From a virus (taxonomy: Duplodnaviria; Heunggongvirae; Uroviricota; Caudoviricetes), in the IMG/VR virus record IMGVR_UViG_2897333091_000004: a stretch of DNA of 30,232 bases. One strand, 5' to 3'. The stretch's first letter is position 1. Every line of letters begins with the position of its first letter. The notes below the pieces were generated by a model. That model ran no database searches, was not told the DNA's origin, and worked only from the letters and a program-made list of their open reading frames with translations. Made by a program: the position numbers and the translations under genes. Shown here one piece after another: positions 3,951 through 29,491 of the stretch.

Positions 3951-6060
3951 ATGACGGCAGAGTACATCAGGGACTGGCAACAACCGCGCCACGCAGTAGG
4001 ACGTGAAGGAACGGGGATCCCCGTTCCTGAATCCGCGCTTTCCTCCTGGCTGGATGCCTACCGGGTAGAGAACGAGCGCCGCCAGGAAATGGCTGATGCG
4101 GCGTTCTCCGCCACGCCGCTGGGCAACCTGATTAATAAAAGCCTGGACGCACAGGAAAAACAGGACAAAACCATCACACTGGCAGGAGACGCCAGAAAGC
4201 AGGTACGCGGCGCGGTGGATGAAGCCATGGCCTCGCTGCGCCTGCTGCCATCCTATCTGCGCGATCCGCTTATTCGCCACCTCTCCTTCCTGCGCAAAAA
4301 ACAGGAATCTGACCGCCAGAAAGGTAAAAAGAACCAGCAGGCTGAACGCTACGCGCGCGGGACCCTGCGCAAAATATTCGAACGTCTGGACCGCACCGAC
4401 CACCGCTGGCTGACACCGGGTTATCGCTCCCTTGCCGGACGCGAACGCCTGGATGATTTGCTTTACCTCCCGCAACTCAACAAGCACCAGATACAGACGC
4501 TGGCCACCATGACGGCAGCGATGTTCAGCAGCACCTTCGAAAAACTCTGCGATGGCTTTGGCGCGACCGATGGCGAGCTGACCATGGATGTAACCCTGAA
4601 GGCGTATCAGATGCTGGCCCGCATGGCGTTACACCTGCACGCCATGCCTCCACATTATGACGCACTGACAACAGACAAAGACCGGAGGAACGAACCGGAC
4701 ACGGAGCTGCTGCCGGGCGCAGTCCTTCGCCTGACCTGTGCGCAATGGTGGAAACGCAAACTGTGGCTGTTACGTTGCGAGTGGAGAGAAGAACAACTCC
4801 GCGCCACCTGTCTGGTTTCCAGAAAAACATCGCCCTATCTGAGCCAGGACGCGTTAAGCGAGTTTCGCGCACAGCGCGAGAAAACACGCGATTTCCTGAA
4901 AAGTTTCATGCTGGAAAATGAAGACGGGTTCACGATTGATCTCGAGACGGTGTATTACGCGGGAGTAAGTAACCCGGTTCACCGTAAGGCAGAAATGATG
5001 GCCACCATGAAGGGGCTGGAACTTCTGGCCGAAGCCCGTGGCGACAAAGCGGTGTTTCTGACTGTCACCTGCCCGTCAAAATACCACGCCACAACAGAGA
5101 ACGGTCATCCGAATCCCAAATGGAACGGGGCCACCATGCGCGACTCCAGCGATTATCTGGTTAACACGTTTTTTGCGGCGGTCCGCAAAAAACTGAACCG
5201 CGACGGCCTGCGCTGGTATGGCATCCGCACGGTGGAGCCTCACCATGACGGCACCGTGCACTGGCATATGATGGTCTTTGCTCATCCGGAAGAAATCGAC
5301 AGCATCGTGGCCATCACCCGCGATATTGCCATTCAGGAAGACCGCCACGAGCTGGGCAATGATATTACTCCGCGCTTTAAGGTGGAGTACGTCGACGGCT
5401 CCAAAGGCACGCCAACCAGCTACATCGCCACCTACATCGGAAAAAACCTGGACAGCCGCGCCGTGGATGGAATCGACCCGAAAACGGGCAAACCACGCGT
5501 TGACCACGAAACCGGAAAATCAATGGCCGAGAGCGTGGAGCGCGCCATCGGCTGGGCGCGCCTTCATCGGGTCCGCCAGTTCCAGTTCTTTGGCATCCCC
5601 TCCCGTCAGGTGTGGCGTGAACTGCGCCGCCTTGCCAGCCAGATGGCACGCAACCCGGAAGGCCCGCAACGGCTGAAGGATGACGCAATGGATGCGGTAC
5701 TCGCTGCCGCTGATGCCGGATGTTTTGCCACCTACATTGAAAAACAGGGTGGCGTACTTGTTCCGCGCAAGGACTACCTGATTCGCACAGCCTACGACCT
5801 CGCAGATGAGCTGAACGATTACGGCGAACAGAGTGTACAGATTTACGGGATCTGGTCGCCATTCATCGGGGAATCCTCCCGTGTGTGCACGCATCCGGAT
5901 AACTGGAAGCTGGTAAGACGTAAACCGGAAGCGGAAGACAGCGCCCGCGAAAATGGTTTTGACCTTCAGGGCGGCCCTGCCGCCCCTTGGACTCGTGGCA
6001 ATAACTGTCCCCGTGTACAGGAAACGGACAACAACGGGACAGAACAGCCGGAAGAACGGC
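3951..6060 (+). CDS. A: P2 gpA-like rolling-circle replication initiator (HUH endonuclease), allele 1; 3' end cut by the contig edge
   Basis: HUH motif in GTVHWHMMVFAHP and paired catalytic tyrosines in TSYIATYIGKN (YxxxY), the hallmark of phiX174-A/P2-A superfamily initiators. The track ORF continues through the N run artificially. Confidence 0.75.
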
Positions 6061-6160
6061 NNNNNNNNNNNNNNNNNNNNNNNNNNNNNNNNNNNNNNNN
6101 NNNNNNNNNNNNNNNNNNNNNNNNNNNNNNNNNNNNNNNNNNNNNNNNNNNNNNNNNNNN
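6061..6160. other. assembly gap (100 N)
   Basis: Run of 100 N. Confidence 1.
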
Positions 6161-6319
6161 TCTTTTTCGCGTCAGAATTATGGCGGGGCGTACGGGGCCG
6201 ACTTCGGTCGGGCCGGATTCTTTGCTCTCCGGTGTTGAGAACCCTGTACGTCTCGCCACCCCGAGATTCTCAACTCTGGATGGTGAGCTATTTCTATCAC
6301 CGAGCAAAGAGGCCACACC
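6161..6319 (+). promoter_or_regulatory. second copy of the structured leader (first 127 bp identical to 3117-3243)
   Basis: Identical sequence, including the UUCG hairpin and the SD-sequestering stem, ahead of the ATG at 6320. Confidence 0.45.
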
Positions 6320-6550
6320 ATGGCAAACCGCAAACAACAGCGCGCATACGCTGCGCGTCGTCACATCCAGACTGAAATCAACCGTAGACTTTTCCGCGCA
6401 TCACGCGTCGCGCAAATCATGCACATCAATATGCTGCATGAGCGCAGCCACGCGCTATCGAACATCTATTCCGCCTCTGTTTTCAGCTATCTGGCGGATG
6501 ATCTGCGCGAGCTGCAACAACTCTTCCAGCAGCAAAACAAACTCCATTAA
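6320..6550 (+). CDS. hypothetical small basic protein (76 aa), paralog of 3276-3506
   Basis: About 90 percent identical translation (MANRKQQRAYAARRHIQTEINRR...). Confidence 0.6.
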   Translation: MANRKQQRAYAARRHIQTEINRRLFRASRVAQIMHINMLHERSHALSNIYSASVFSYLADDLRELQQLFQQQNKLH

Positions 6551-6622
6551 TTCCTGTTCCGGGCCTTTCCTGCACCTTGCGGCGGGAGGCCTTCGCACAT
6601 CTGTAGTAAAGAGAATTGCAGC

Positions 6623-7012
6623 ATGATTGACGCTCATGACTTCACAAGATGGGTGCGCACACAGGACACCCGTCTGGCTCCCGTTCTTCAGGGATTATTT
6701 GATCTCTACATCCGTGGTCGTGACAACAGAGCACGCACCACAAAACCGGAGAATGCAGACACCCTTTATTTCACAGTAGACGACTGCTACCGCGTGGACT
6801 TCACACCACACGGGCTGGCGTTGCACTGCCTGACACCACACGGAGAATCACTGCTGGCGTATTACGACTCCCCGGCCTCCGTATTTGCGGCAATGCTGGC
6901 GCATCGCACTGCTGGCGGGTGTGCCTCGCTGAGTGAATACACCGCTGAATTTAACCGCCTTTCTGCCCTCTTCTCGCAGGAGTGGCAGCGCGTGACGGGA
7001 TACCAGCCATGA
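6623..7012 (+). CDS. hypothetical protein (129 aa) upstream of gpA allele 2; divergent counterpart of 3579-3944
   Basis: Its stop overlaps the gpA allele-2 start (ATGA at 7009-7012). Confidence 0.55.
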   Translation: MIDAHDFTRWVRTQDTRLAPVLQGLFDLYIRGRDNRARTTKPENADTLYFTVDDCYRVDFTPHGLALHCLTPHGESLLAYYDSPASVFAAMLAHRTAGGCASLSEYTAEFNRLSALFSQEWQRVTGYQP

Positions 7013-9136
7013 ATGAGTTTGCATGGAGCTGGAATGAACCACGGCCAGCCATTGATCCGGCCAGATTTACGGAGCACAGGCAGGAAACTGAAACCGACCT
7101 GCAACGCGCCATCCGTTACTACCTTGAGGCAGACAAAAAGGCTCTGGAAGAACAGGAAGCGAAGGAGGAAGCCTTTTTCGCACAATCCACCGTGGGTAAA
7201 AAACTCATGGCATCCCTTGAGGAAGCCGGACAGCGTGAAAAGCTGGCACAAAGCATCATCAGCAAGCGTCAGGCAACAGAACAAGACCCGGTGGCCCGTG
7301 CTTTTGCCACACTGAAGGTGCTTCCCGTTTATCTGCGTGAACCTCTGAGCCGCCACCTCTCTTTCCTGCGCAAAAAACAGGAAGCCGATCGCCAGAAAGG
7401 CAAAAAGAGCTGGCAGGCTGAACGCTACGCGCGCGGAACCCTGCGCAAAATATTCGAACGCCTGGACCGCACCGACCACCGCTGGCTGACACCGGGTTAT
7501 CGCTCCCTTGCCGGACGCGAACGCCTGGATGATTTGCTTTACCTGCCGCAGCTCAACAAGCACCAGATACAGACGCTGGCCACCATGACGGCGGCGATGT
7601 TCAGCAGCACCTTCGAAAAACTCTGCGATGGCTTTGGCGCGACCGATGGTGAGCTGACCATGGAGGTGGCACTGAAGGCGTATCAGATGCTGGCCCGCAT
7701 GGTGTTACACCTGCACGCCATGCCTCCACATTATGACGCACTGACAACAGACAAAGACCGCAAGAACGAACCGGACACGGAACTGCTGCCGGGCGCAATC
7801 CTCCGCCTGACCTGTGCGGAATGGTGGAAACGCAAACTGTGGCTGTTACGTTGCGAGTGGCGGGAAGAACAACTCCGCGCCGCCTGTCTGGTTTCCAGAA
7901 AAACATCGCCCTATCTGAGCCAGGACGCGTTAAGCGAGTTTCGCGCACAGCGCGAGAAAACACGCGATTTCCTGAAAAGTTTCATGCTGGAAAACGAAGA
8001 CGGGTTCACGATTGATCTCGAGACGGTGTATTACGCGGGAGTAAGTAACCCGGTCCACCGTAAAGCAGAAATGATGGCCACCATGAAGGGGCTGGAACTT
8101 CTGGCCGAAGCCCGTGGCGACAGAGCGGTGTTTCTGACTGTCACCTGCCCGTCAAAATACCACGCCACAACAGAGAACGGTCATCCGAATCCCAAATGGA
8201 ACGGGGCCACCATGCGCGACTCCAGCGATTACCTGGTTAACACGTTTTTTGCGGCGGTCCGCAAAAAACTGAACCGCGATGGCCTGCGCTGGTATGGCAT
8301 CCGCACGGTGGAGCCTCACCATGACGGCACCGTGCACTGGCATATGATGGTCTTTGCACATCCGGACGAGATTGAAACCATCGTGTCCCATGTCTGCGAT
8401 ATTGCCATTCAGGAAGACCGCCACGAGCTGGGCGATGACATAACTCCGCGTTTTAAGGCTGAGTACGTAGACGGCTCAAAAGGCACGCCAACCAGCTACA
8501 TCGCCACCTACATCGGAAAGAACCTGGACAGCCGCGCCGTGGATGGCATCGACCCGAAAACGGGCAAGCCACGCGTTGACCACGAAACCGGAAAATCAAT
8601 GGCAGAGAGCGTGGAACGCGCCATCGGCTGGGCGCGCCTTCACCGGGTCCGCCAGTTCCAGTTCTTTGGCATTCCCTCTCGTCAGGTATGGCGTGAACTC
8701 CGCCGCCTTGCCAGCCAGATGGCACGCAACCCGGAAGGCCCACAACGGCTGAAGGATGATGCAATGGATGCGGTACTCGCTGCCGCTGATGCCGGGTGTT
8801 TTGCCACCTACATTGAGAAACAGGGCGGCGTACTTGTTCCACGCAAAGACTACCTGATTCGCACCGCCTACGACCTCGCAGATGAGCTGAACGATTACGG
8901 CGAGCAGAGTGTACAGATTTACGGGATCTGGTCGCCGCTCATCGGGGAGTCTTCCCGTGTGTGCACACATCCGGATAACTGGAAGCTGGTAAGACGTAAA
9001 CCTGAAGCAGAAGACAGCGCCCGCGAAAATGGTTTTGACCTTCAGGGCGGCCCTGCCGCCCCTTGGACTCGTGGCAATAACTGTCCCCGTGTACAGGAAA
9101 CGGACAACAACGGGACAGAACAGCCGGAAGAACGGC
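7009..9136 (+). CDS. A: P2 gpA-like rolling-circle replication initiator, allele 2; continues across the gap into 9237-10076
   Basis: Same HUH and YxxxY motifs. About 97 percent identical to allele 1 after roughly residue 110, but the N-terminal ~110 residues are unrelated. The ATG at 7009 overlaps the upstream stop. Confidence 0.75.
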
Positions 9137-9236
9137 NNNNNNNNNNNNNNNNNNNNNNNNNNNNNNNNNNNNNNNNNNNNNNNNNNNNNNNNNNNNNNNN
9201 NNNNNNNNNNNNNNNNNNNNNNNNNNNNNNNNNNNN
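9137..9236. other. assembly gap (100 N); flanking contigs overlap by an identical 127-bp sequence
   Basis: 9010-9136 is identical to 9237-9363. Confidence 1.
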
Positions 9237-10076
9237 GAAGACAGCGCCCGCGAAAATGGTTTTGACCTTCAGGGCGGCCCTGCCGCCCCTTGGACTCGTG
9301 GCAATAACTGTCCCCGTGTACAGGAAACGGACAACAACGGGACAGAACAGCCGGAAGAACGGCCAGCACCGTGGCCGCAGCTCCCTGACGGCATTGAAGT
9401 GAATGAATGGATGCGCTCACTGAAACGGCACGAACGCCGGGCACTGATGCGTTCGCTGCGTGACAAACAGGCCAAAAACAGCAGTGATGAAATGCAGAAC
9501 TGGACACAGAGCCGCAAACAGCCACAGCCTTTGCCTGATAACCACGAATTACTCGCTAAAGAATGGCGGGAGTCTGCCGAATCTCTCGGCCTGCATATCG
9601 GTGAACAGCAGATGCAGCACCTGTTACGGGGCGGCAGCCTGTACGTTGACGGCAGCATCATTGCACCGCAGGGATTTGAAATTGTACGCAAACCGGATAC
9701 CCGCCCGGACAGCCGAATCACGCAGCTCTGGCAGCGCCTGAGCCGTAATCACGGCGTAAGCAGCACGGAGATCCGCCATAACCCGGTCGCCAGCTATCTG
9801 GCACAGCTCGGGGCATCAGACCCCGAAGCCGCCGCACGCCTGACATCCACACTTCAGCAGGACCAGAACACCATGAAAACACCCGTTACCGTGCTTTCTG
9901 ACATGCTGCGCGCCATTCGTGACGCAGAGCACGCACAGAGAATCAGTGAAACCACTGAACGCGCCCGCCGCAAAGCAGACCTGCTGCGGGGTAGCCTGAT
10001 CAGTGGCAACAAAAAACAGACAGAAACGGGATTCACAAATCCCGCAAATGAGCAAAAAACACGCCGCGATATATGA
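9237..10076 (+). CDS. A: C-terminal part of the gpA-like initiator (in frame with the pre-gap sequence through the 127-bp overlap)
   Basis: Frame 0 reads EDSARENGFDLQGG...TEQPEERPAPWPQLPDGIEVNEWMRSLKRHERR... without stops to 10076. The track ORF 9399-10076 is the distal part of the same frame. Confidence 0.6.
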   Translation, partial: EDSARENGFDLQGGPAAPWTRGNNCPRVQETDNNGTEQPEERPAPWPQLPDGIEVNEWMRSLKRHERRALMRSLRDKQAKNSSDEMQNWTQSRKQPQPLPDNHELLAKEWRESAESLGLHIGEQQMQHLLRGGSLYVDGSIIAPQGFEIVRKPDTRPDSRITQLWQRLSRNHGVSSTEIRHNPVASYLAQLGASDPEAAARLTSTLQQDQNTMKTPVTVLSDMLRAIRDAEHAQRISETTERARRKADLLRGSLISGNKKQTETGFTNPANEQKTRRDI

Positions 10077-13372: not shown

Positions 13373-16216
13373 TCAATCTTTATCGTAAAAACTGCCACGC
13401 CCGGCACGGGCGCGCCGTTCCACTTCTGCCCTGACCATTTCACCGACCAGTTTCGCCAGTTCGCGGGGATTCTGCGTAACAACGTTATGCAGATGAACAT
13501 GAATTTCACCACCAAATTCGGAGGCAACAGGCTCCCGGTTACGGGAAGTTACAGGAACTGATGCCACTGGAGATCGTATAGCCTCCGCCACCGGGCGGGA
13601 GCTGGCCGCAACAACAGTGACCAGCGCCGGAGGCAGCGGAGCCGGGACCACGGGTGTGATATTAATTGCGGGGGCAGGCTTACTGACCTGCGCAATCTTC
13701 CGCTCCTGCCACTCCCCACGAACAGCCAGTGCGCGGGGCAGGTTCTTAAAGACAATATCGCCGGGGCCAATGCGTTTTTTCGTCTCATCAACCAGCTTAC
13801 CTGTGTTATCAGCAATTTTGCTGAGTCTGCGTAGCGTCCCGGTATTGCTGTCTGTGAGCGGTTTGTTGTCTTTGGGTTTATCACCTCCGGTGCCATTGCC
13901 ATTTTCCACAGGCTTCGGCGGATTGATTTTCGCCAGGTCCCCCTGAAGCAAGGCAACCTTGTCCTGAAGAATGGCCGCACGCTGTGCGTCTTCGATTTTC
14001 TTGCGCGCCCTTTCCGCTTCATCCGGAAGCACACCGAGTTTTTCAAGTATCCACGCCAGCGTATCCAGTAGCATTTTTGCAGGTGTCAGAACAAGCTGTA
14101 ACGCACCGCCAAGAACGTTACCGAATATCTCGCCAGCACTGGTACATTTATCCAGCGTTTCCTTGCTGGACTCCATCGGTGACAGCAGCGATTTAAACCA
14201 GTTAAACACCTGGCTGATCCCGCTTCCGATTGCGTCAAAAACAGGGCCAAACCGTTCAAAGGTTTCGCGCAACGGGGCCAGTCGCTCCATAATCCCACTG
14301 AACACCCCGGCATAAAACGCCTTGATGGGTTCCCAGTATTTCCAGATGAGAACCGCCGCAGCGACAAACGCTGCAGCAATCAACCCGACCGGACTGAACA
14401 GCGCCCCGATAGCGCCTCCCAGTAAAGAAACGGAACCCGTCACCATTCCCCATAGTGCTGGCAGGACCCTGACAGCATTCATTGATCCGGTCAGGAGAGA
14501 AAAACCAAGACGCAGTTTTGCCAGCGGGCCAGCAAGCACACCAATAGCCAGCGACAACGAGCCAACCGTTGCAGTCATTGCCAGCAACGCACCGCCTGCT
14601 ATCAGTAGCTGGCGCGTCAGTGTCGGATGGGCCTGCGCCAGCGCCGTCACCCTTGATACCACCCGTGTGAGCCACTGCGTGACAGAACGCAGCGGACCGT
14701 CAATCAGATCTGCAATGCGGATGCGCAACCCTTCCCATGCACTGCCGAGTGATTTCAGATCGCCGTCAAGGTTGTTGGCCATAACCTTTGCTGTGCGTTC
14801 AGCCTCACCGCGTGCGCCTTCAAGTTCTTTTCTCAGTTTAGGTAAGGAACCGTCACCCGCTGCATCAACGAGCGCCATAAACGATGTGAAAGCCTCTTCT
14901 CCGGCAATGTCCTTAAAGAACGATACCCGGTCAACTTCCCCGTATTTGCGGGTGGCTTTATAAAGGTCGGCCAGCACATCCTCCATCGGGCGCATTTTGC
15001 CCCCGGCATCCGAGACGGACACGCCCAGCTCTTTCAGAGCTTCTGCCGCCGCCTTTGGCGGTGATGCCAGACGAGCCAGGCTGGCACGCATTGCCGTCCC
15101 GGCATCACTCCCTCTGATACCCATATTCGCCAGCACGCCCGCCATCGCTGCGGCCTGCTCCAGCGATATTCCCAGCTTACCCGCCACCGGACCTGCATAT
15201 TTCATGGTTTCGCCCAGCGCGCGAAGGTCAGTGTTAGTACGGGTAAACGCTGCTGTAAGCGTGTCACCGACCCGGTCCATCTGGTCAGCGGAGAGGCCGA
15301 ACTGCGTCAGGATATTTGAGCCAATATCCGCCGTCTCGCCAAGGTCCATACCGCCAGCCGTTGCCATGCTCAGCACGCCCGGAAGCGCAGCCTGAATGGC
15401 CTGCGGTGTGAAGCCAGCCATTGCAAGAAATGCCTGCCCACTGGCGGCATCGCCTGCGGTGAACTGCGTTTCAGAGCCAAGTTTTAACGCCTGCTCACGC
15501 AGCGCCTTAAACTGCGGGCTGTTTTTGTCGATTCGCGTCAGTGCCTGAACGCGGGACATCTCTTTCCCGAACCCGATCGCAGGCTGCAAAAAACGCCCGG
15601 CAGCATAGCCGCCCGCCGCTGCCGCACCAATTGCCAGTGCACCACCTGTTTTCAGTTTTCCCGCTGTTTCCTGCGCGCGCGAATACCGCTCACGCGCCCG
15701 CGTTACACGCGCAAGCGCCTGCCGTTCGCGTTCAAGCTGGTTGTTGTACTGTTCGGTGCGTCTGATGGCCTGCTGGATGGTGTTATCGCTGCCTGTCAGG
15801 GAAATGCCGTGGCGTTTCAGCTCTCCGCCAAGCTCCCGCATTTTCTGAATTTCCCGTGTGCGCGATTCATTCAGGCGTTCAAGCCGGGTGCTTAACTGCT
15901 GCATCAGCTTTTGTTGTTTTTCGCTGAGCACTGTACCCGTGCGTTGTAACTGATTAAGGGCGTTAAGCTGGCGTCGTGCTTTCACGATGCCCGCATCCGC
16001 TTTACTGACAGCGTCGCGGGCGCGCTCAAATGATCGCGCCTGACGCTCGAGATTTTTGATCGCCCCCTGCGTTCGCTGGATGGAGTCACCAAACTGCCCC
16101 ATCAGGCGGCGTGCGTTTTCGGCAGGTCGGGTCAGCCTGTCAACGGCGCTGAAAGCGACCCGGATATCAAGAGTCTTCATTGTCTGCATTCCCGCTGCGA
16201 AGTGCCGCCCGCTCAC
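13373..16216 (-). CDS. T: tail tape measure protein (P2 gpT-like), GTG start
   Basis: 947-aa protein, coiled-coil rich N-terminus and Gly/Ala-rich hydrophobic central region; sits between E/E' and U. Confidence 0.85.
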   Translation of the reverse strand: MSGRHFAAGMQTMKTLDIRVAFSAVDRLTRPAENARRLMGQFGDSIQRTQGAIKNLERQARSFERARDAVSKADAGIVKARRQLNALNQLQRTGTVLSEKQQKLMQQLSTRLERLNESRTREIQKMRELGGELKRHGISLTGSDNTIQQAIRRTEQYNNQLERERQALARVTRARERYSRAQETAGKLKTGGALAIGAAAAGGYAAGRFLQPAIGFGKEMSRVQALTRIDKNSPQFKALREQALKLGSETQFTAGDAASGQAFLAMAGFTPQAIQAALPGVLSMATAGGMDLGETADIGSNILTQFGLSADQMDRVGDTLTAAFTRTNTDLRALGETMKYAGPVAGKLGISLEQAAAMAGVLANMGIRGSDAGTAMRASLARLASPPKAAAEALKELGVSVSDAGGKMRPMEDVLADLYKATRKYGEVDRVSFFKDIAGEEAFTSFMALVDAAGDGSLPKLRKELEGARGEAERTAKVMANNLDGDLKSLGSAWEGLRIRIADLIDGPLRSVTQWLTRVVSRVTALAQAHPTLTRQLLIAGGALLAMTATVGSLSLAIGVLAGPLAKLRLGFSLLTGSMNAVRVLPALWGMVTGSVSLLGGAIGALFSPVGLIAAAFVAAAVLIWKYWEPIKAFYAGVFSGIMERLAPLRETFERFGPVFDAIGSGISQVFNWFKSLLSPMESSKETLDKCTSAGEIFGNVLGGALQLVLTPAKMLLDTLAWILEKLGVLPDEAERARKKIEDAQRAAILQDKVALLQGDLAKINPPKPVENGNGTGGDKPKDNKPLTDSNTGTLRRLSKIADNTGKLVDETKKRIGPGDIVFKNLPRALAVRGEWQERKIAQVSKPAPAINITPVVPAPLPPALVTVVAASSRPVAEAIRSPVASVPVTSRNREPVASEFGGEIHVHLHNVVTQNPRELAKLVGEMVRAEVERRARAGRGSFYDKD

Positions 16217-16750: not shown

Positions 16751-17263
16751 TCAGCCAAGCCCGAGCGCGGAACGGATGCGATCGGGCACAATGTCCTTGC
16801 CGTCCTTCCGGTAAATGAAGTTCAGCAGGTCAATCTCCCACAACGGGCGATCGTTAACACTCAGCTTGTAGTAGGTGTTTTTAATGGCGTAAGTGTGTGA
16901 TGTGGCTTCGCCCTGTTTGGCTTCCCCCATATCAATTTCCGTCACACGTCCGCGCATTTCGACTTCATACAAGTCGCTTTCTGCATCGGTGTAGTATTCA
17001 CCCGCAAAACGCAGCAGCGTGCCGTCAATCGTGCCGCCATACTTAAGGAACAGCTCACGAACTGCGCCCCCCATGACAAAGCTCGCATCAAGCGCGGAGT
17101 CGTCCAGGCCGAGATCAATACTTACCGCCCCCATCATGCCACCACCCCGGTAGCTGTCGGTTTTGCGCGTCAGCTTAGGCAAAGTGACGGACGTCACCTT
17201 ACCCACTTCGTTTTCACCATCCACAAACAGCGTAAAAAAGCGAAGATGTTTTGGCACAGCCAT
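16751..17263 (-). CDS. FII: major tail tube protein (P2 gpFII-like)
   Basis: 170-aa protein immediately downstream of the sheath gene; conserved FETUD order. Confidence 0.8.
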   Translation of the reverse strand: MAVPKHLRFFTLFVDGENEVGKVTSVTLPKLTRKTDSYRGGGMMGAVSIDLGLDDSALDASFVMGGAVRELFLKYGGTIDGTLLRFAGEYYTDAESDLYEVEMRGRVTEIDMGEAKQGEATSHTYAIKNTYYKLSVNDRPLWEIDLLNFIYRKDGKDIVPDRIRSALGLG

Positions 17264-18447
17264 CAGGCACCTCCCAGCACCGCAAATGCGGGTTCAAAGT
17301 ATTCATCAGTAAACGTCTGGTAAAGCTCCATGTCTTCCAGTGGCGGAACGGGCGTATATTTGTAGCGAATGCGCACACGCCCCTGACGTAAATCCGTGGT
17401 GCTGTTATCCACCACGTCATACCAGCACTCCGCACCAATCAGTTTCCCGGCAGTAACCAGTGAATCCAGTTTTGCCCTGATGGCACTGATAACATCCTTC
17501 ACGTTCGCAGGCGTCAGTGGACTGTCGATGGTTTCAAACTGCGCTTCCGCAATTGAATCAGCCAGCACCTGTGCGGTTCGGGTATACACCTCAAAGATGT
17601 AGGCGTTCGTTTCCGGTGTGCGGTTGCCCCAGAAGCGGAACCCGTTGCGACGAATAATGGTCGTGATTTCTTTGTTGTTGAGGCTGTTGGCATCACTGTC
17701 TTCGGCCTGCAACGACCAGAACACATGCCTGGACATCCCCAGCACATTTTTAACCGGAACGTTGGACAGCGATTTGTGCCAGCCCTGCTCATGGTCAATG
17801 TACGCACGAAGGCCGCACGCATAGGCAGGCGCGGGGAACGTTTCGTTTTCGCCACTTTTCGGGTTGTAGGCGATGAAGTCCGGCCATAAGAGCATCACTT
17901 CACGTTCGTTGAATTTCTGGCGGTAGGTAATCGCTTCAGCCATCGTGTTACAGCCGTGACATGAGGCATACACAAATGCGCGCAGTTTACCCGCAATCAC
18001 GCACAGGGATTTTGTCACCGCCTCCGTGTCCAGCTCCGGCGCGGCCAGAATACGCGGACGGTATCCGATGCTTTCATCCTGCTCTGCAACAAGCAGCGCA
18101 TACATCCCCGTATAGCTGCCGTCATCCTCAGAACCACCGATAACCAGTTGATCCTGCGTCTTTTCGTCTTCTTCTTTGTGTTCAGCCACGCGAACGACGA
18201 TCACCTTTGTGCTCACCTGGTCTGCGATGGCCTTAAGCGCACGATAAAGCGTCCCCGTTGTTCCGCATTTTCCCAGCACGTCATTGACGCGGGTCAGCAG
18301 TGTGGGCTTGTTCAGCGGGAACAGCTTCGCGTCCGCATCATCCGCCGTTGCCACGATACCGATAACGCTGGAATCAACATCGTTAATCGCTGTTACCAGG
18401 TCGGTATTTTCCGTAACACGGGCACCATGAAAACGAGTTTCACTCAT
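17263..18447 (-). CDS. FI: contractile tail sheath protein (P2 gpFI-like)
   Basis: 394-aa protein (MSETRFHGARVTENTDLV...), size and position typical of myovirus sheath proteins. Confidence 0.85.
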   Translation of the reverse strand: MSETRFHGARVTENTDLVTAINDVDSSVIGIVATADDADAKLFPLNKPTLLTRVNDVLGKCGTTGTLYRALKAIADQVSTKVIVVRVAEHKEEDEKTQDQLVIGGSEDDGSYTGMYALLVAEQDESIGYRPRILAAPELDTEAVTKSLCVIAGKLRAFVYASCHGCNTMAEAITYRQKFNEREVMLLWPDFIAYNPKSGENETFPAPAYACGLRAYIDHEQGWHKSLSNVPVKNVLGMSRHVFWSLQAEDSDANSLNNKEITTIIRRNGFRFWGNRTPETNAYIFEVYTRTAQVLADSIAEAQFETIDSPLTPANVKDVISAIRAKLDSLVTAGKLIGAECWYDVVDNSTTDLRQGRVRIRYKYTPVPPLEDMELYQTFTDEYFEPAFAVLGGA

Positions 18448-18604
18448 AGCTTCAGCCCCTTGTATCCGTTAAATGATTCGGCAACAATCATCACCCACCA
18501 CGCGCGTAATCTCACCCCTGCGCCGTTCTCCCGCCACGGCGACAACAAAAAGCAGTAACCCCCTCCGCACGCACATGCGACCATGCCACACAGGGAGGGA
18601 GCAG

Positions 18605-19714
18605 ATGACCGACACCACCATGCAATTGCTCAGTCAGAGCACAGACCCCGTGAAAATGCCGGATTTTGATATTCTCGCCGAGGGGGAAACACTGTCCGGC
18701 GTGGCAGAGCGCCTGATGAGCCTGTCACTGACCGACAACCGGGGATTTGAAGCAGACCAGCTCACCATCACGCTGGATGATGCTGATGGTCAGTTGCAGT
18801 TGCCGCCACGGGGCGCTCGCCTGACGGTTCTCATTGGCTGGAAAGGCGAACCGCTGACAGAAAAAGGCACTTACATTGTTGATGAAATTGCTCATGAAGG
18901 ACCGCCCGACAGACTGACCATTTCAGCCAGAAGCGCAGATTTTCGGGATGAATTTAACGTCAAGCGCGAAGTGTCCTGGCATGATGTGACCGTTGAGCGA
19001 GTGGTATCCGCCATCGCTCATCGGTACGGTCTGAAACCGCAAATCAGCGAAATGCTGATGGATATCGAAATCGACCACGCCGACCAGACCGAAGAAAGCG
19101 ATATGTCCTTCCTTACGCGCATGGCGGAAATGCTGGGCGCAATCACCACGGTAAAAAGCGGCAATCTGTTATTCATCATGCCCGGTGGTGGCGTGAACGC
19201 ACAGGGCCAGCCGTTGCCCTCGTTCGCCATTACACGCAGCAGCGGCGATCGCCATCAGTTCCGTATTGCTGACCGCGAGGCGTATACGGGGGTACGCGCC
19301 TACTGGCTTGATCTTAATTACGGGAAAAAGAAAAAGGTCAGCGTAAAACGCCGTAAACCGCCAAAACCCAAAAAGGAGAAAAGCAGCAGCCGTGAAGGTG
19401 ATTATATGGAAGGTGCGGAAGGCAATGTGTTTGTGTTACGCAAGACTTATCAGAACGAGCAGGCAGCAAGACGCGCAGCGGCGGCAAAGTGGCAGCAGCT
19501 ACAACGCGGAGCCGCATCATTTTCCATCACGCTGGCACGTGGACGTGCAGAACTCTACCCCGAAATGCATGGCACGGTAACAGGATTTAAAAGCGAGATT
19601 GATAATCAGGACTGGATTATTGCAAAAGCCGAGCACACCATTGATAACAGCGGCTTTACCACGCAGCTTGAGCTTGAGGCAAAAATCCCGGAATGGATAG
19701 CGGAAACAGAGTGA
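18605..19714 (+). CDS. D: P2 gpD-like tail protein (late control gene D family)
   Basis: ATG at 18605 with a GGAGGG SD (the track ORF start at 18473 is an upstream extension); about 370 aa; followed by ogr as in P2. Confidence 0.8.
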   Translation: MTDTTMQLLSQSTDPVKMPDFDILAEGETLSGVAERLMSLSLTDNRGFEADQLTITLDDADGQLQLPPRGARLTVLIGWKGEPLTEKGTYIVDEIAHEGPPDRLTISARSADFRDEFNVKREVSWHDVTVERVVSAIAHRYGLKPQISEMLMDIEIDHADQTEESDMSFLTRMAEMLGAITTVKSGNLLFIMPGGGVNAQGQPLPSFAITRSSGDRHQFRIADREAYTGVRAYWLDLNYGKKKKVSVKRRKPPKPKKEKSSSREGDYMEGAEGNVFVLRKTYQNEQAARRAAAAKWQQLQRGAASFSITLARGRAELYPEMHGTVTGFKSEIDNQDWIIAKAEHTIDNSGFTTQLELEAKIPEWIAETE

Positions 19715-19756: not shown

Positions 19757-20017
19757 ATGTTCCGTTGTCCGCTTTGTGGCGCATCTGCCCGTATCCGCAC
19801 CAGTCGTCCAGAAAATGATTCAAACACCGTGCGGCAAAAGTATTACCAGTGTAACAACCTGGAATGCGGCGTATGCTTCTCAACACTGGAAGCTTTCCAT
19901 AAATTCACATCAAAACACGCCTCCGGCGTTCACTCTTCAGAAGATATCCCGTGGCATGATCTGCCAGCTTCACACAGGGGAAACAATCAGATGAGTTTGC
20001 CTTTATCTCAGAATTAA
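19757..20017 (+). CDS. ogr: Ogr/Delta-family zinc-finger late-gene transcription activator
   Basis: MFRCPLCGASARIRTSR...YYQCNNLECG, the C-x2-C...C-x4-C pattern and N-terminus of P2 Ogr. Confidence 0.85.
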   Translation: MFRCPLCGASARIRTSRPENDSNTVRQKYYQCNNLECGVCFSTLEAFHKFTSKHASGVHSSEDIPWHDLPASHRGNNQMSLPLSQN

Positions 20018-20088: not shown

Positions 20089-20188
20089 NNNNNNNNNNNN
20101 NNNNNNNNNNNNNNNNNNNNNNNNNNNNNNNNNNNNNNNNNNNNNNNNNNNNNNNNNNNNNNNNNNNNNNNNNNNNNNNNNNNNNNNN
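20089..20188. other. assembly gap (100 N)
   Basis: Run of 100 N. Confidence 1.
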
Positions 20189-20520
20189 GTGACGGCGATA
20201 CCGTAGAGCAGATGGTTATACATCCGTTCATTGGCTTTGAGCAGCCCTTCATTCAGCGCCGGAGAACAGACCTGTGATATCAGGTTATCCAGTGCTTTTT
20301 CCGATAACTGGCAGGTTTTGCCACCCGCTATAAAGGAACGCTTCGACAGCTCTTCACGCAGAACCGGACGCAGCACCACCTCATCCTGTTTATAGCCCCG
20401 GTAATCCATAATCTGTTTCGGAGATAAAAACGTCCAGCCGAGGCTGGTCAGTAACGTCAGTGCCGGAATTTTGGCGCTGTATTCTTCCTGGAATTTAGGC
20501 GTGTACGTCTGGTTCATCAT
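20189..20520 (-). CDS. hsdR: N-terminal fragment of a probable type I restriction endonuclease R subunit (cut by the contig edge)
   Basis: Last gene of the hsdM-hsdS operon, preceded by an AAAGGA RBS; N-terminus has the general HsdR_N-like character. Identification is by position and weak pattern only. Confidence 0.4.
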
Positions 20521-20569
20521 TAATCCTTTTCTTTCTGGCGCTACTCGCTACTGGTCACATGAAGATTCA

Positions 20570-21253
20570 TCAATGCAGACAGCACTTCTTAAATTTTTTA
20601 CCGCTGCCACACGGACACGGGTCATTTCGCCCGGGCATGTTTTCTGCCCCCTTCACTGGAACAGGCCGGGATGATGCCTCTGACATTCTCACCGACAACC
20701 AGTGCTGGTAAAGCGCCAGTGCCGCAGGCTGAATGAGAGTAATACTCTGTTCAAATTGAACAGGTGACATTTTCTCAACCACTGGGAAGTTCTTTTCGAT
20801 ACCATGAAGGGCTATCGCCTCCAGCGAGGGACGTAAGGCCTCTGGCAAGGCTGACCAGTCATCCAGAGACCGGCCTTTCATATACCCGAAACACCACTCT
20901 TCGACGATTGTATATGTCTTCCCCTTCACCTCACGTCCATTGAAAATCGGTTCAAACTGTTCAGGGGCCTCATACAGGCAGCCAGCGATATCGTTCATAT
21001 GCTGAAAACACAGCCCCACAAAACGCGTCATCTCTTTTTCAGTGGTCCAGTGAGGGTAGTAGTCACCTCGCCCCCAGATAGCACTAAGCCAGGTATTAGG
21101 GGGGATCATATTCGGGCCAGAGACAATCGCTGTCAGAAAGCCATCCAGCTCAGAGAAACAGAGCACAGAGTCATCATTGCCGTATTTCAGCAACACCTCT
21201 TCCAGCCAGTCGATTTCCCGGTCAATCAGCGGCCCGCTTTTCGTCAGTTTCAT
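20570..21253 (-). CDS. YecA-like protein with a C-terminal SEC-C zinc-binding motif
   Basis: Terminal [20 protein letters not shown] is a canonical SEC-C motif; the body resembles the UPF0149/YecA family. The start ATG overlaps the hsdS stop (ATGA). Confidence 0.75.
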
Positions 21254-22476
21254 TCGGCAACCGCCTCATCGACCTTAACACGACGTTTGCCAGTCAATAG
21301 CTGTTGCATCAGGGCTTTTTTCTCATCTCTCAGGCAGGCGAGTTTTTTCTCCAGCGTGGAGATTTCGGTGTCAGCAGCGGACAGCACGGCGGCGATTTTT
21401 TGTTGCTCTTTAATAAATGGGCAAGAAAAGCTTAAAGTTTCAAAATCTTTCTTGGAAAGTTCTAAAAATGTTGAGCCAGATGATTTTTTGATCATCTCAT
21501 TTGTGTTCATTTGCAACAAATAATAAATAAATTCGATATTAAACCCTTCATTCGGAATGATGTTTTTAAAACCTTGATTGGTACAAATTTCCGATGTCGA
21601 AATTGCTAAAGCACCAATGGTAGCTCTTGTACATACCATCAAACTACCTTTTGGCAAAAGAACAGCTGAGCTATTTAGTAATCCCGCAGGAGTAATTTTT
21701 CTACTAGTATTGCTAACGAACCTACCCGTTAATGCAGTAACATCAGTTGGGGTAAGCCATAGAATATCGCCTTCCCAATACATGGCCATGTTTGTATCAG
21801 GTGTTCCACCGGATACAACTTTGCCCATTTGTATTAGTTTAGTAATTTTCCACTCCCCACTAAACCTCACCCCATTCTCATCCAGCAACCGTTTATTCCC
21901 GGTAAGCAATTGCTGCATCAGGGCTTTTTTCTGCTGTTGACTGTTGGCGAGAAGGCTTTCCGTCACCGAAATTGCCTTATCCCAGGCGGTCAGAATTTGA
22001 GATATTTTATCTTGTTCACAAATAGCAGGAGTTTTTATGTTTAACGCTCTAATATCAGAAAGGTTAATTCTAGAAAAGGTAGAACCACCTGCACTTTTTG
22101 CTATCTGTCGCTGGACTAAATCTGATTGTAATGTGTAGTAAATAAACCGCCAATCTGCATGGATTGCTTTAATTAAGACAGTGTCTTGCCCTAATACAAA
22201 TGGCTTTTTGGAATCCACATAGCTAACAACACCGACAGACTGGTTACGACTCATAACCAAATCACCTTGTTCAACAACACAGTGATCCATCAGAGAGCGA
22301 TATTCTTCTTCTGTAACTCTTTTTACAGGTGAAATCAGATCTAAGGCTCCCCATTTTATCGTCCCCGGTGAGACAAGTGGTATTCCCGATTTAACGTACT
22401 CAGGAGTCCTGTGTTTGCAATCGATTATCGACGCAACCGATGAGAGTTTCTGAGATGACCACCCCTTAGGAATCAT
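21250..22476 (-). CDS. hsdS: type I restriction-modification specificity subunit
   Basis: Two target-recognition halves separated and followed by the repeated conserved block [11 protein letters not shown]; overlaps the 3' end of hsdM. Confidence 0.85.
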
Positions 22477-23989
22477 AACCCAACTCCTTCAAATATCCAG
22501 CCATCTCCGTTTCCAGCTTCGCCAATTCCGCTTTCAGTTGCTCACGCTCAGCACGTACCGCCAGCAAATCGATCTCTTCCTCTTCTTCAAAGGTATCGAC
22601 ATAGCGCGGAATATTGAGGTTGTAATCGTTGTCCTGAATCTCTTTCAGGCTGGCAAGGTAGGCATATTTCTCGACGTTATCGCCATCACGGTAGGTCTTG
22701 ACGATTTTCTTAATGTTTTCTTCGCTAAGCTGGTTCTGGTTTTTACCTGCCTTGAATTCACGACTGGCATCGATAAACAGCACCTTGTCATCAACTTTCT
22801 GCTTTTTGAAAATCAGAATCGCAGCCGGAATCCCCGTACCGTAGAACAGTTTTTCCGGCAGACCAATTACCGCATCCAGCAAATTTTCGTCGATCAGTTT
22901 CTGGCGAATTTTACCTTCGCTGGAGCCACGGAAAAGCACACCGTGTGGCACAACTACGCCCATACGGCCAGTTCCCGGTTTCAGGGTTTCGATCATATGC
23001 GAGATAAAAGCGTAATCTCCTTTAGTCTTCGGCGGTACACCGCGACGAAAACGGCCAAACTTATCGTTCTCGGCCTCGTCATGGCCCCACTTATCGAGGC
23101 TGAACGGTGGGTTAGCGGTCACGATATCAAACAGCATCAGGTCGCCATTTTTATCGAGCAGCTTCGGGTTGCGAATGGTATCGCCCCACTCGATTTTATG
23201 GTTGTCTTCCCCGTGCAGGAACATATTCATTTTCGCCAGCGACCACGTAGAACCGATCGCTTCCTGACCGAACAATGCATAGTTACGACTATCATGCCCG
23301 GAGACAATTTTACGCCCACACTTCATCAATAATGAACCGGAACCACAGGCTGGATCGCAGATGGTATCACCCGGTTGCGGATCGAGCAGTTCTGCAATCA
23401 GGTCCGAAACTTCCGGCGGGGTATAGAACTCCCCGGCTTTCTGCCCACCGCTGGCGGCAAAGTTTTTGATCAGGTATTCGTAAGCATTGCCGATAACGTC
23501 CAGCGTACCGACACGACTCGGCTTCAGGTTGAGATCTTCACCGGCGAAGTCTTCCAGTAGCTGACGAAGGATGGTGTTTTTCTGTTTTTCTTCGCCAAGA
23601 CGATCGGTGTTAAACGAAATATCCTGGAACACGCTTTTCCCGGCATCTTTCAGTTTGGTTCCGTTGGCTTCTTCGATTGCATGCAGAGCCTGATCGATAC
23701 GCTCACCGTTACCCGGCTCATGGCGGCGTTCGTACAGCGCATAAAAGCTGGCACTTTTTGGCAGTACAAAACGCTCGTTGGCCATCATCGCTTCAATCAG
23801 TTCCGGCACATCGCCATACTGTTCTTTGTATTCGTCATAGTGATCCTGCCAGACATCTGAAATGTACTTGAGGAACAGCATGGTAAGGATAAAGTCTTTA
23901 TAGGTATCAGCACTGATGGTGCCACGGAACGTATCACACGCGGCCCACAGGGCTTTGTTGATCGTGTCCTGACTGATTTTGTCGTTCAT
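22466..23989 (-). CDS. hsdM: type I restriction-modification N6-adenine DNA methyltransferase
   Basis: AdoMet-binding motif DPACGSGSLL and catalytic NPPF motif; 507 aa. Confidence 0.9.
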   Translation of the reverse strand: MNDKISQDTINKALWAACDTFRGTISADTYKDFILTMLFLKYISDVWQDHYDEYKEQYGDVPELIEAMMANERFVLPKSASFYALYERRHEPGNGERIDQALHAIEEANGTKLKDAGKSVFQDISFNTDRLGEEKQKNTILRQLLEDFAGEDLNLKPSRVGTLDVIGNAYEYLIKNFAASGGQKAGEFYTPPEVSDLIAELLDPQPGDTICDPACGSGSLLMKCGRKIVSGHDSRNYALFGQEAIGSTWSLAKMNMFLHGEDNHKIEWGDTIRNPKLLDKNGDLMLFDIVTANPPFSLDKWGHDEAENDKFGRFRRGVPPKTKGDYAFISHMIETLKPGTGRMGVVVPHGVLFRGSSEGKIRQKLIDENLLDAVIGLPEKLFYGTGIPAAILIFKKQKVDDKVLFIDASREFKAGKNQNQLSEENIKKIVKTYRDGDNVEKYAYLASLKEIQDNDYNLNIPRYVDTFEEEEEIDLLAVRAEREQLKAELAKLETEMAGYLKELGYDS

Positions 23990-24638: not shown

Positions 24639-25142
24639 TTACTGATAGTGTTTTATGTTCAGATAATGCCCGATGACCTTGTCATGCAGCTCCACCGATT
24701 TTGAGAACGACAGTGACTTCCGTCCCAGCCTTGCCAGATGTTGTCTCAGATTCAGATTATGTCGCTCAATGCGCTGAGTGTAACGCTTGCTGATAACGTG
24801 CAGCTTTCCCTTCAGGCGTGATTCATACAGCGGCCAGCCATCCGTCATCCATACCACGACCTCAAAGGCCGACAGCAGGCTCAGAAGACGCTCCAGTGTG
24901 GCCAGAGTGCGTTCACCAAAGACGTGCGCCACAACCGTCCTCCGTATCCTGTCATAAGCGTAAAACAGCCAGCGCTGACGTGATTTAGCACCGACGTAGC
25001 CCCACTGTTCGTCCATTTCAGCGCAGACAATCACATCACTGCCCGGTTGTATGCGCGAGGTTACCGACTGCGGCCTGAGTTTTTTAAGTGACGTAAAACC
25101 GTGTTGAGGCCAACGCCCATAATGCGTGCACTGGCGCGACAT
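24639..25142 (-). CDS. insB: IS1 InsB (transposase frame, expressed as InsAB' by a -1 frameshift)
   Basis: 167-aa ORF overlapping the insA 3' end in the -1 frame. Confidence 0.9.
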
Positions 25143-26395: not shown

Positions 26396-26830
26396 TCAAC
26401 AACTTTCCACAGTTACCGTTACCCGGTAAATCCCCATAGAGAGATACTCCATAAAATTACGCTCCCACAGGGACCAGAGTTCATTCCTCTCTGCTGCCAG
26501 TGAAATATCCCCAATCAGATAATGGAAGACATAATTCCCCGACCAGCAGAAATCAATTTCTTTTTCCAGCTCAGGGTAGACACGCCCCATATAACTAAAA
26601 TCTGTGACATAATCAAAATACCATTCATTATTCTTACGGATAAACCGTATTTCAACGGGATGAAAGCCCCCGGATTCTGCACTGTAGTCCGGATCACGGA
26701 AATTAATAACCACTGCCTCAGTTATTTTTTGTAAAACCTGATTTGCCAGAAGAGTAGTAATATGCTGCTGAAATTCTTTAGTAACAGGCAGATTTAATCC
26801 TGCCTGTTTTAAGGCATATTGGGTTTGCAT
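26396..26830 (-). CDS. hypothetical protein (144 aa), last gene of the four-gene cluster
   Basis: Long AT-rich ORF co-directional with the cluster; no recognisable motif. Confidence 0.55.
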   Translation of the reverse strand: MQTQYALKQAGLNLPVTKEFQQHITTLLANQVLQKITEAVVINFRDPDYSAESGGFHPVEIRFIRKNNEWYFDYVTDFSYMGRVYPELEKEIDFCWSGNYVFHYLIGDISLAAERNELWSLWERNFMEYLSMGIYRVTVTVESC

Positions 26831-28193: not shown

Positions 28194-29411
28194 TCAAGGG
28201 GTGCTAAAATCATCATTGTTACCGGCAGTAACGGTGTTCAAAAGAAGGTCAGTTACGCCCTGCCCGGTCTGACGCATACGCTCTGGTGTCAATTTCGCGT
28301 AGCGCTCCGTACTTTGAATACTCGCATGCGCCAGTTGTGCTTTAACGTCATACAGGCTGAATTGACCACTCGAAACCAGTAAAGAGGCAACAGAATGACG
28401 TGTGGTGTGAAAACAGACTTCATTCTTGTCTATACCGCACTGTGCCAGTATTTTTTCATATGCCCACCGGGGTTCCGATATCGGTTTTCCATTATCCTTA
28501 ATGGCGAACAGATACGGATTACTGCCAACTCGTGGGATAGCATCAATAATCGATAATGCGGCATCGCTTAGATATACCGTCCGACTGCGACCATTTTTTG
28601 TATAAGGAATGAACAGAGTACGATTGGCCCGGTCGATATGTTCATGCCTGACATTAAGCATTTCTGATTTGCGTGTACCGGTTAACAACAACATGGCTAT
28701 CAATCCCCCGGCAGCTTTGTTGGGATATTGGGTAGCAGCGTCAAGAATGCGCCTGATCTCATCAGCATCAAAAAAGCGCGTCCGCTGATTATTCTCTTTC
28801 AGTAAAGGGATCTTATCGGCTTCATTCTTTTCCAGCACATCCTGTCGCAACGCATAACGCCCCATCGTTTTCAGAATAGCAAGGGCTCTGTTACAGGTAG
28901 ACGGCGCATATTGCTGCCCGTGAATACGCCCCTCCAGCATGTCAAACAGCACCTGTTGTATCTCTCTGGCCCTGAGATCGCAGTAACGTATCTTTCCCAG
29001 ACGAGGTTCAATGTATTGCGTGAAACGCTGAACATCCTTATCCCATGACTTTTTATGGCGCTTTATATAAGGAACATAGGTTTGATGGAAAAACTCACCA
29101 AGTGTTGGCATCGCGCGGTAGTTATCTCGCTCCGCTTTAGGGTCATTTCCCAGCGCAATCGCTTCTTTGTGACGACGGGCTATTTGCCGGGCTGTTCCCA
29201 CATCAATTTCAGGAAATCTGCCAATACTGATACTTTTTTTGGTACCGTGGAATGTATACCGCAGAAGGAAGCGCTTGTTGCCTGTTCGACCTGAGAGGCA
29301 CTTGAGTCCAATAACTTCGGTATCAGATACCTCAAGCTCTGTAGAGCGGGTATCAGTATTTGCAGGTAGGGCTTTGATGGATGCATTGGTAAACCGGAAG
29401 GATTTTTGCAT
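28194..29411 (-). CDS. int: tyrosine recombinase / phage integrase, P4-type with an N-terminal arm-binding domain
   Basis: C-terminal catalytic signature HTTRHSVAS ... RYAKL and N-terminal region typical of P4-family integrases. Start chosen at the ATG with a GAGGA SD (MQKSFRF...); the track ORF extends to 29441. Confidence 0.85.
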   Translation of the reverse strand: MQKSFRFTNASIKALPANTDTRSTELEVSDTEVIGLKCLSGRTGNKRFLLRYTFHGTKKSISIGRFPEIDVGTARQIARRHKEAIALGNDPKAERDNYRAMPTLGEFFHQTYVPYIKRHKKSWDKDVQRFTQYIEPRLGKIRYCDLRAREIQQVLFDMLEGRIHGQQYAPSTCNRALAILKTMGRYALRQDVLEKNEADKIPLLKENNQRTRFFDADEIRRILDAATQYPNKAAGGLIAMLLLTGTRKSEMLNVRHEHIDRANRTLFIPYTKNGRSRTVYLSDAALSIIDAIPRVGSNPYLFAIKDNGKPISEPRWAYEKILAQCGIDKNEVCFHTTRHSVASLLVSSGQFSLYDVKAQLAHASIQSTERYAKLTPERMRQTGQGVTDLLLNTVTAGNNDDFSTP

Positions 29412-29491
29412 ATTTATCCTCATGTATCTGATTGATATCATGGAGACAATATATATCTGAAGGTGTTTTTATTACGGGGCAGTATTGAAGA

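Follow-up and report, generated by a model that had tools for sequence, protein, structure and literature searches.

Type I restriction-modification (R-M) systems on plasmids and islands must spare each new host and tolerate constant reshuffling of their specificity subunit, HsdS. In the prr locus (EcoprrI, prrABCD), an accessory gene, prrC, lies between hsdS and hsdR (PMC3874165; PMC12707154), and it is found almost only in that context (PMC3874165). The core YecA protein (AscA) of Escherichia coli binds metal through a SecA-type metal-binding domain (MBD), relies on the MBD to bind both SecB and ribosomes, and has an N-domain that acts as a promiscuous holdase and prevents aggregation (bioRxiv 10.1101/2020.07.21.215244; 10.1101/613315). 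YgfB, a UPF0149 protein, binds the antiterminator AlpA and thereby blocks it (PMC9998450). Here we describe a gene in the IMG/VR virus record IMGVR_UViG_2897333091_000004, a stretch of 30,232 nucleotides that we call the window, which encodes a YecA paralogue and sits inside a type I R-M operon, with hsdS on one side and hsdR on the other. We name this R-M-embedded paralogue YecA2, and use core yecA for the housekeeping gene beside tyrP.

The operon lies on the minus strand of the window, with hsdM and hsdS complete and co-oriented, and with hsdR represented by 110 codons before a gap. It contains the following features.

22466-23989, minus strand: hsdM, 507 amino acids (aa); Pfam N6_Mtase 3.3e-107 and HsdM_N 8.9e-22; PADLOC MTase_I 1e-133
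21250-22476, minus strand: hsdS, specificity subunit, 408 aa; Pfam Methylase_S 2e-41; PADLOC Specificity_I 5e-215
21250-21253, minus strand: overlap of the hsdS stop and the yecA2 start, ATGA, 4 nucleotides (nt); the plus strand reads TCAT
20570-21253, minus strand: yecA2, 227 aa; UPF0149 and SEC-C
20699-21211, minus strand: UPF0149 (YgfB-like) helical domain of YecA2, aa 15-185; Pfam PF03695 4.5e-30
20573-20632, minus strand: SEC-C, the SecA-type MBD of YecA2, aa 208-227 [21 protein letters not shown]; Pfam SEC-C 2.2e-10 (aa 209-225)
20521-20569, minus strand: spacer between yecA2 and hsdR, 49 nt, with the Shine-Dalgarno/ribosome-binding site AAAGGA
20189-20520, minus strand: hsdR 5′ fragment, 110 codons and then the gap; Pfam HSDR_N 9.8e-07
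20089-20188, no strand: run of 100 N, a scaffold gap between the R-M contig and the contig of a P2-like prophage

An original prediction made from the letters of the window had read this operon as hsdM, hsdS, a SEC-C-motif gene and an hsdR-like gene, and the open reading frames and Pfam matches agree with that order. It had also placed the start of the SEC-C gene over the hsdS stop, and the TCAT at plus-strand positions 21250-21253 bears this out. There is a further overlap of 11 nt between hsdM and hsdS. The window HsdM is 99.8-100% identical to the annotated HsdM of complete genomes, and HsdS contains two target-recognition domains according to Pfam and ends in a C-terminal helix, [16 protein letters not shown], common to all related loci. 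Two closed E. coli chromosomes, FDAARGOS_943 and 944, match the whole 3.9-kb operon region at 99.4% identity, and there the order is M, S, 'YecA family protein' and R (1094 aa), followed by an overlapping gene for a YgjP-like/M48 peptidase. The DNA of the hsdR start is 99.4% identical to that of the 1094-aa HsdR in complete genomes, and together with the HSDR_N match over 110 residues this supports the earlier reading of the downstream frame as hsdR-like. RefSeq HsdR homologues begin at the second ATG, at position 20517. We note that the end of the P2-like prophage (gpD, ogr) lies to the left of the 100 N, which therefore mark a scaffold join of indefinite length. The window holds only the first tenth of hsdR, and the intactness of hsdR in the source strain is not readable there.

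Sequence comparison and the structural model identify YecA2 as a predicted non-enzymatic protein, in which a flexible linker joins a YgfB-like helical domain to a SecA-type MBD. The UPF0149 and SEC-C matches given above agree with the YecA/UPF0149 body and C-terminal SEC-C motif proposed earlier; the window protein also reaches 348.7 bits against the NCBIfam model PRK10396 (YecA; equivalog cut-off 149) and matches TIGR02292 at 6.5e-39. The C-terminus of YecA2 is [20 protein letters not shown], and its tail, [15 protein letters not shown], fits the pattern CxCx8C(C/H) with conserved Ser and aromatic residues. C213, C215, C224 and C225 are invariant in the alignment, and H227 is nearly so. In a PDB sequence comparison the MBD aligns with the YchJ and SecA MBD peptides, and it differs from the MBD of core YecA at one position. 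In the AlphaFold model (mean pLDDT, a per-residue confidence score, of 86.5), a helical domain that includes one beta-hairpin (aa 11-193) is joined by a low-confidence linker (~aa 190-207) to a small metal-binding knuckle. When this model was compared with the PDB by Foldseek, the only meaningful matches were lpg0076 (4gyt) and YgfB (1izm). No nuclease, ATPase, protease or toxin domain and no membrane feature was found in YecA2 using Pfam, PADLOC, NCBIfam and Foldseek.

These features set YecA2 apart from PrrC, with which it shares the position of a single accessory gene between hsdS and hsdR and the near-restriction to that context. PrrC combines an ABC-ATPase with an anticodon nuclease and belongs to a type IC system, whereas YecA2 has neither domain. 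The HsdR of the present family is only distantly related to that of the type IC system EcoR124I (3.5e-32 in a PDB sequence search, over the motor core only). The likeness to PrrC that was proposed earlier stands for the slot in the operon only: YecA2 has neither the ATPase nor the nuclease, and its predicted fold matches YgfB-type helical proteins alone. YgfB (Pseudomonas aeruginosa and Haemophilus influenzae, 1IZM) has the helical fold of YecA2 at 16% sequence identity in the fold alignment but, unlike YecA2, has no SEC-C tail and is encoded by a chromosomal housekeeping gene. With YgfB and AlpA there is precedent for a role of YecA2 that is non-enzymatic and based on protein binding. The closest relative is core YecA/AscA of E. 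coli K-12, which has the same two-domain architecture, length and predicted fold class. By analogy, YecA2 may be expected to keep the docking of core YecA on SecB and ribosomes and its holding of unfolded proteins.

YecA2 is nevertheless distinct from the ordinary chromosomal YecA, in line with the original prediction. Its identity to core E. coli YecA (221 aa) is 58% over the full length; core YecA sits by tyrP, whereas YecA2 is found on mobile elements within the R-M operon, and both occur in one genome. In near-identical complete E. coli genomes, core yecA stands beside tyrP at ~15 kb from yecA2 and in the same orientation. The R-M island is inserted exactly between tRNA-Leu (leuZ-cysT-glyW) and core yecA/tyrP, so that the paralogue and the original are neighbours. 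This tRNA-Leu, between pgsA and yecA, is a hotspot of pipolins and prophages (PMC11551731). The earlier remark that yecA normally lies by tyrP and tRNA genes and not in a restriction locus needs qualifying, since the R-M island itself adjoins core yecA.

The identity of homologues to the window protein is bimodal, ~68-97% for YecA2 proteins versus 52-59% for the core YecAs of Enterobacterales, with none between. In a neighbour-joining tree, the YecA2 proteins branch off separately, basal to the sampled core YecA sequences, and their clade is not nested within any sampled enterobacterial core YecA group. These comparisons place YecA2 in a distinct clade and do not fit orthology with housekeeping yecA. 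The mean net charge is about -8.5 for YecA2 proteins versus about -21.5 for core YecAs (~13 fewer negative), with some overlap between the groups, and this lower acidity suggests that YecA2 may have different partners than core YecA. YecA2 proteins have in common a four-residue N-terminal extension, MKLT, relative to core YecA. In addition, 14 alignment positions split the two groups cleanly.

All 14 YecA2 alleles examined are intact. Pairwise ratios of nonsynonymous to synonymous divergence (dN/dS) among the alleles are mostly 0.05-0.2, and dS reaches saturation, which indicates that yecA2 has long been kept by purifying selection. The gene is present in ~418 of 5426 complete E. coli genomes (~8%). 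Among species-representative genomes, it was found in Buttiauxella (2), Intestinirhabdus, Klebsiella michiganensis, Franconibacter, Enterobacter, Pseudescherichia, Citrobacter freundii, Morganella and one uncultured enterobacterium, and it also occurs in Providencia. At an identity of at least 80%, YecA2 is carried by ~347 plasmids, mostly conjugative IncF plasmids of Klebsiella pneumoniae such as pKP048, where the same module is accompanied by two DUF262 genes and Hhe. Matches in the phage collection are core yecA at the edges of prophage records, not YecA2. A scan of viral contigs gave one match of 90% identity (L189), with hsdS directly upstream.

A few metagenome contigs carry hybrid genes, half core-yecA-like and half YecA2-like (L101:164-838 and L102:355-1029). 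One hybrid is flanked by hsdS and tyrP, as a deletion between the paralogues predicts; the other is followed by hsdR. The hybrids (P0014, P0015, P0018) come from single low-coverage metagenome contigs, and there are 0 among the complete E. coli genomes. They are possibly real recombinants in another genus, or assembly chimeras.

The linkage of YecA2 to hsdS was counted for YecA2 genes with a usable upstream flank. The gene directly upstream is hsdS in 10 of 10 species genomes, in 69 of 69 metagenome contigs, in all but one of the 47 sampled E. coli entries holding YecA2, and in every annotated plasmid entry among the matches listed. When the junction was followed with reading-frame tracking across 85 loci, the hsdS stop and the YecA2 start overlapped in 81 of them; the overlap is 4 nt long in 76 and 1 nt long (TGATG) in 5. 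Among relatives of the clade, only a metagenome gene of 68% identity (P0017) was found away from hsdS, and its contig has another yecA paralogue as well. HsdM is divergent in the Morganella and Providencia loci (42% identity). Even so, their DNA is homologous to that of a Citrobacter locus from the final 70 nt of hsdS through YecA2 to the initial 33 nt of hsdR. Independent acquisition of YecA2 by two hsd families was considered and is ruled out by this common hsdS 3′ end, YecA2 and hsdR 5′ end.

Within this hsd family and at this island site, what lies between hsdS and hsdR varies. The original prediction had called for a survey of the slot in type I R-M loci; in the related loci compared here, YecA2 where present follows hsdS almost without exception, and other cargo or an empty slot is seen elsewhere. 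Strain TUM9754 has the same hsdM, hsdS, hsdR and M48 genes, no YecA2, and a 21-nt spacer between hsdS and hsdR, and its hsdR 5′ end is 99.4% identical to that of the window. As the same hsd family exists without YecA2, basic R-M activity should not depend on it. Loci with YecA2 as the only insert share an identical 49-nt spacer, although their YecA2 alleles are 72-100% identical to one another. YecA2 is accompanied by a cold-shock-domain protein of ~594 aa in ~190 E. coli genomes, in 7 of the 10 species genomes and in 23 of the 69 metagenome contigs. In Morganella and Providencia it is accompanied by GmrSD, inserted in the hsdR 5′ end (L026:7789-9714, plus strand). Wherever a second gene is inserted, YecA2 comes first, directly after hsdS. 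The locus of E. coli strain 1283 has no YecA2 and holds a Thoeris pair, ThsA (STALD) and ThsB (TIR), at L016:8397-9493 on the minus strand; this locus is broken by insertion sequence (IS) elements. As judged from these sequences, the hsdS-hsdR slot accepts defence cargo and is a recombination hotspot.

The R-M-associated family is not new, contrary to what had been proposed: it is already listed as a RefSeq protein (WP_038341189.1, identical to the window YecA2) and as the PADLOC-DB phage-defence candidate PDC-S12. The PDC-S12 model of PADLOC-DB v2 (PDLC04917) matches the window protein over its full length at 1e-97 and 324.4 bits. PDC models come from 'guilt-by-embedding', a screen that looks within type I R-M, BREX and DISARM systems for embedded genes (bioRxiv 10.1101/2024.01.29.577857), and an entry for PDC-S12 was not found in the portion of its supplementary-table text that was searched. 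In a survey of pipolins, type I R-M and PDC-S12 were among the defence genes that are frequent and recently exchanged in the pipolins of Enterobacterales (PMC11551731). PDC-S12 is a candidate entry rather than a characterised system, and our literature search found no plaque assay or other functional test of it. It represents the same embedding in type I R-M as YecA2, but the model itself is not specific to the embedded clade: core E. coli YecA (L003:7210-7875) scores higher, at 365.6 bits versus 324.4 for YecA2. Survey calls of PDC-S12 alone therefore cannot separate the embedded clade from core yecA, and the clade is better recognised by an identity to YecA2 of at least ~70% together with an hsdS neighbour.

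With a probability of roughly 40%, we favour the reading that YecA2 is a mobile YecA/AscA paralogue that has become a fixed but dispensable, non-enzymatic chaperone or adaptor of this type I R-M family. The operon would take the form hsdM-hsdS-yecA2-hsdR-ygjP-like peptidase, and YecA2 would be made roughly one-for-one with HsdS and would serve the large, assembly-dependent subunits of its own operon. It might aid newly recombined HsdS variants in folding and in joining HsdM, or it might hold back the assembly of HsdR while the element is being established in a new, unmodified host. YecA2 itself would kill neither phage nor cell.

Several observations weigh against this proposal. The guilt-by-embedding screen counts such genes as defence candidates. 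Co-transcription of yecA2 with the hsd genes is suggested by gene spacing only; a promoter and terminator scan of the operon gave a result not above chance. The hsdS-YecA2 junctions all go back to a single lineage, which recombination has spread by way of the conserved 3′ end of hsdS and 5′ end of hsdR, and the strict adjacency could therefore reflect inheritance and not functional dependence. The slot is of a known type, a landing site for independent defence genes such as Thoeris, GmrSD and the cold-shock-domain protein. Finally, loci without YecA2 indicate that this R-M family manages without a dedicated chaperone.

Some of these points fit the PDC-S12 reading, that YecA2 is an independent single-gene anti-phage system for which the R-M operon provides a landing site and an expression platform. 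We consider this somewhat unlikely. It agrees with the full-length PDC-S12 match, to a candidate drawn from genes within type I R-M, BREX and DISARM. It also agrees with the contents of the sister slots (ThsA/ThsB, GmrSD and the cold-shock-domain protein, the last also found in an integrative and conjugative element (ICE) hotspot), with the Hhe and GmrSD-like DUF262 genes of the island, and with SEC-C-type tails in other PADLOC families (E2 and E1-E2 models). However, no effector-like domain was found in YecA2, whose fold is YgfB-like only, and its clade, in contrast to what is typical of defence genes that stand alone, was never seen away from hsdS, bar the 68%-identical outlier. The PDC-S12 listing is also little specific, given the higher score of core YecA, and a plaque assay for PDC-S12 was not found in the literature searched. 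It is very doubtful that YecA2 is instead a PrrC-like guard, which would lie latent on the Hsd complex, be freed once a phage anti-restriction protein has inactivated the enzyme, and abort infection as its MBD jams ribosomes or SecB. The position between hsdS and hsdR is indeed that of prrC (PMC3874165; PMC12707154), and so near-exclusive a linkage to hsd is otherwise noted mainly for PrrC in the embedding survey. The ribosome- and SecB-binding residues of the MBD are conserved, and core YecA, when overproduced, binds many proteins and makes the secretion defect of a secB mutant worse. Against a guard stand the absence of an ATPase domain, a nuclease domain and a PrrC model match in Pfam and PADLOC, the 58% identity to a non-toxic housekeeping protein, and a host R-M family that is not type IC; nothing indicates toxicity.

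A further alternative, which we regard as unlikely, is that YecA2 is a passenger captured from the chromosome at the tRNA-Leu hotspot, perhaps with a generic chaperone benefit and with no role in restriction or defence. The island lies exactly between tRNA-Leu and core yecA, with both genes in the same orientation (PMC11551731), which makes imprecise excision or recombination plausible; YecA2 has kept both the domain architecture and the MBD of core YecA, and core::YecA2 hybrid genes exist on single metagenome contigs. This is countered by the purifying selection kept across saturated synonymous divergence, and by the conservation of the hsdS position and the start-stop overlap in chromosomes and plasmids of many genera. 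Moreover, the clade falls outside every sampled enterobacterial core YecA group, so any capture must be ancient, and the much less acidic average charge of YecA2 suggests changed partners. The notion that an ordinary yecA was put beside the hsd genes by an error of scaffolding or assembly has a negligible chance. A scaffold gap does lie 380 bases downstream of the yecA2 stop, but the hsdS-yecA2-hsdR junctions are in continuous sequence on one side of it, closed genomes that also carry core yecA reproduce these junctions at 99.4% identity, and the identity to core YecA is only 58%. A core yecA misplaced by scaffolding was ruled out, as closed genomes hold both genes.

Beyond the chaperone or adaptor reading lies a broader idea, to which we assign a rather low likelihood. 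UPF0149 proteins with an MBD might form a general class of ribosome- or SecB-tethered helpers recruited by mobile elements, each coupled in translation or in position to a large DNA enzyme of its element (HsdS/HsdR, and the transposases of Tn3 and IS66), with YecA2 either timing the assembly of the restriction complex or acting as a non-nuclease guard. If this were true, YecA2 might for example delay the loading of HsdR after transfer to an unmodified host; alternatively, as a non-nuclease guard, it would react when phage proteins disable the enzyme. Distant UPF0149 plus SEC-C genes (25-33% identity; L098:6001-6699, L099:5974-6687, L195:4986-5675 and L196:5055-5978) were seen elsewhere. On Xanthomonas and Pseudomonas plasmids, such genes come immediately behind those of Tn3-family transposases. 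One on a Methylocystis plasmid overlaps the end of an IS66 transposase gene, and one on a Paraburkholderia plasmid lies among HEPN and helicase genes. These settings suggest that UPF0149 plus SEC-C proteins may have been recruited repeatedly as helpers of mobile-element enzymes. For YecA2, being hsdS-coupled in ~8% of complete E. coli genomes and on hundreds of Klebsiella plasmids provides a testable handle on the sparing of new hosts and the reshuffling of HsdS. The arrangement is common and conserved, which makes it a reasonable experimental target.

Two neighbouring genes of related loci deserve mention. The cold-shock-domain protein of ~594 aa follows YecA2 in about half of the related loci (L014:7194-9056, minus strand; L008:3801-5585, plus strand) and is not in the window. 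Its cold-shock domain is N-terminal and is followed by a helical middle part and by a C-terminal domain with ~17 invariant Cys/His residues. It has no PADLOC match, and a fold match in the PDB was found for the cold-shock domain only. Its homologues stand alone, with no YecA nearby, on an Erwinia chromosome, in a Vibrio ICE hotspot and on a V. cholerae island. These stand-alone homologues rule out YecA2 as a dedicated partner of this protein, which by its sequence and settings looks like an uncatalogued defence candidate. The second gene encodes a 251-aa YgjP-like/SprT-like (M48) metallopeptidase and, in all complete loci, has a 4-nt overlap with the hsdR stop (L001:8293-9048, minus strand). 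It is present with or without YecA2, and in the window it would fall beyond the gap.

The left two thirds of the window (1-20088) are occupied by the P2-like prophage, which ends 70 bases before the gap. The following prophage genes were assigned.

13373-16216: tape measure
17263-18447: sheath
18473-19714: gpD
19757-20017: ogr

This prophage has two tandem genes for gpA-like replication initiators (3951-6626 and 6982-9402), which is unusual. No tRNA gene was found within the window. On the other side of the operon, an IS1 element (transposase 24639-25142) lies just upstream of the hsdM promoter region. Beyond IS1 are pipolin-type genes, among them a DUF2787 gene (26396-26830), two open reading frames with PHROG matches only, and a tyrosine integrase gene (28194-29441).

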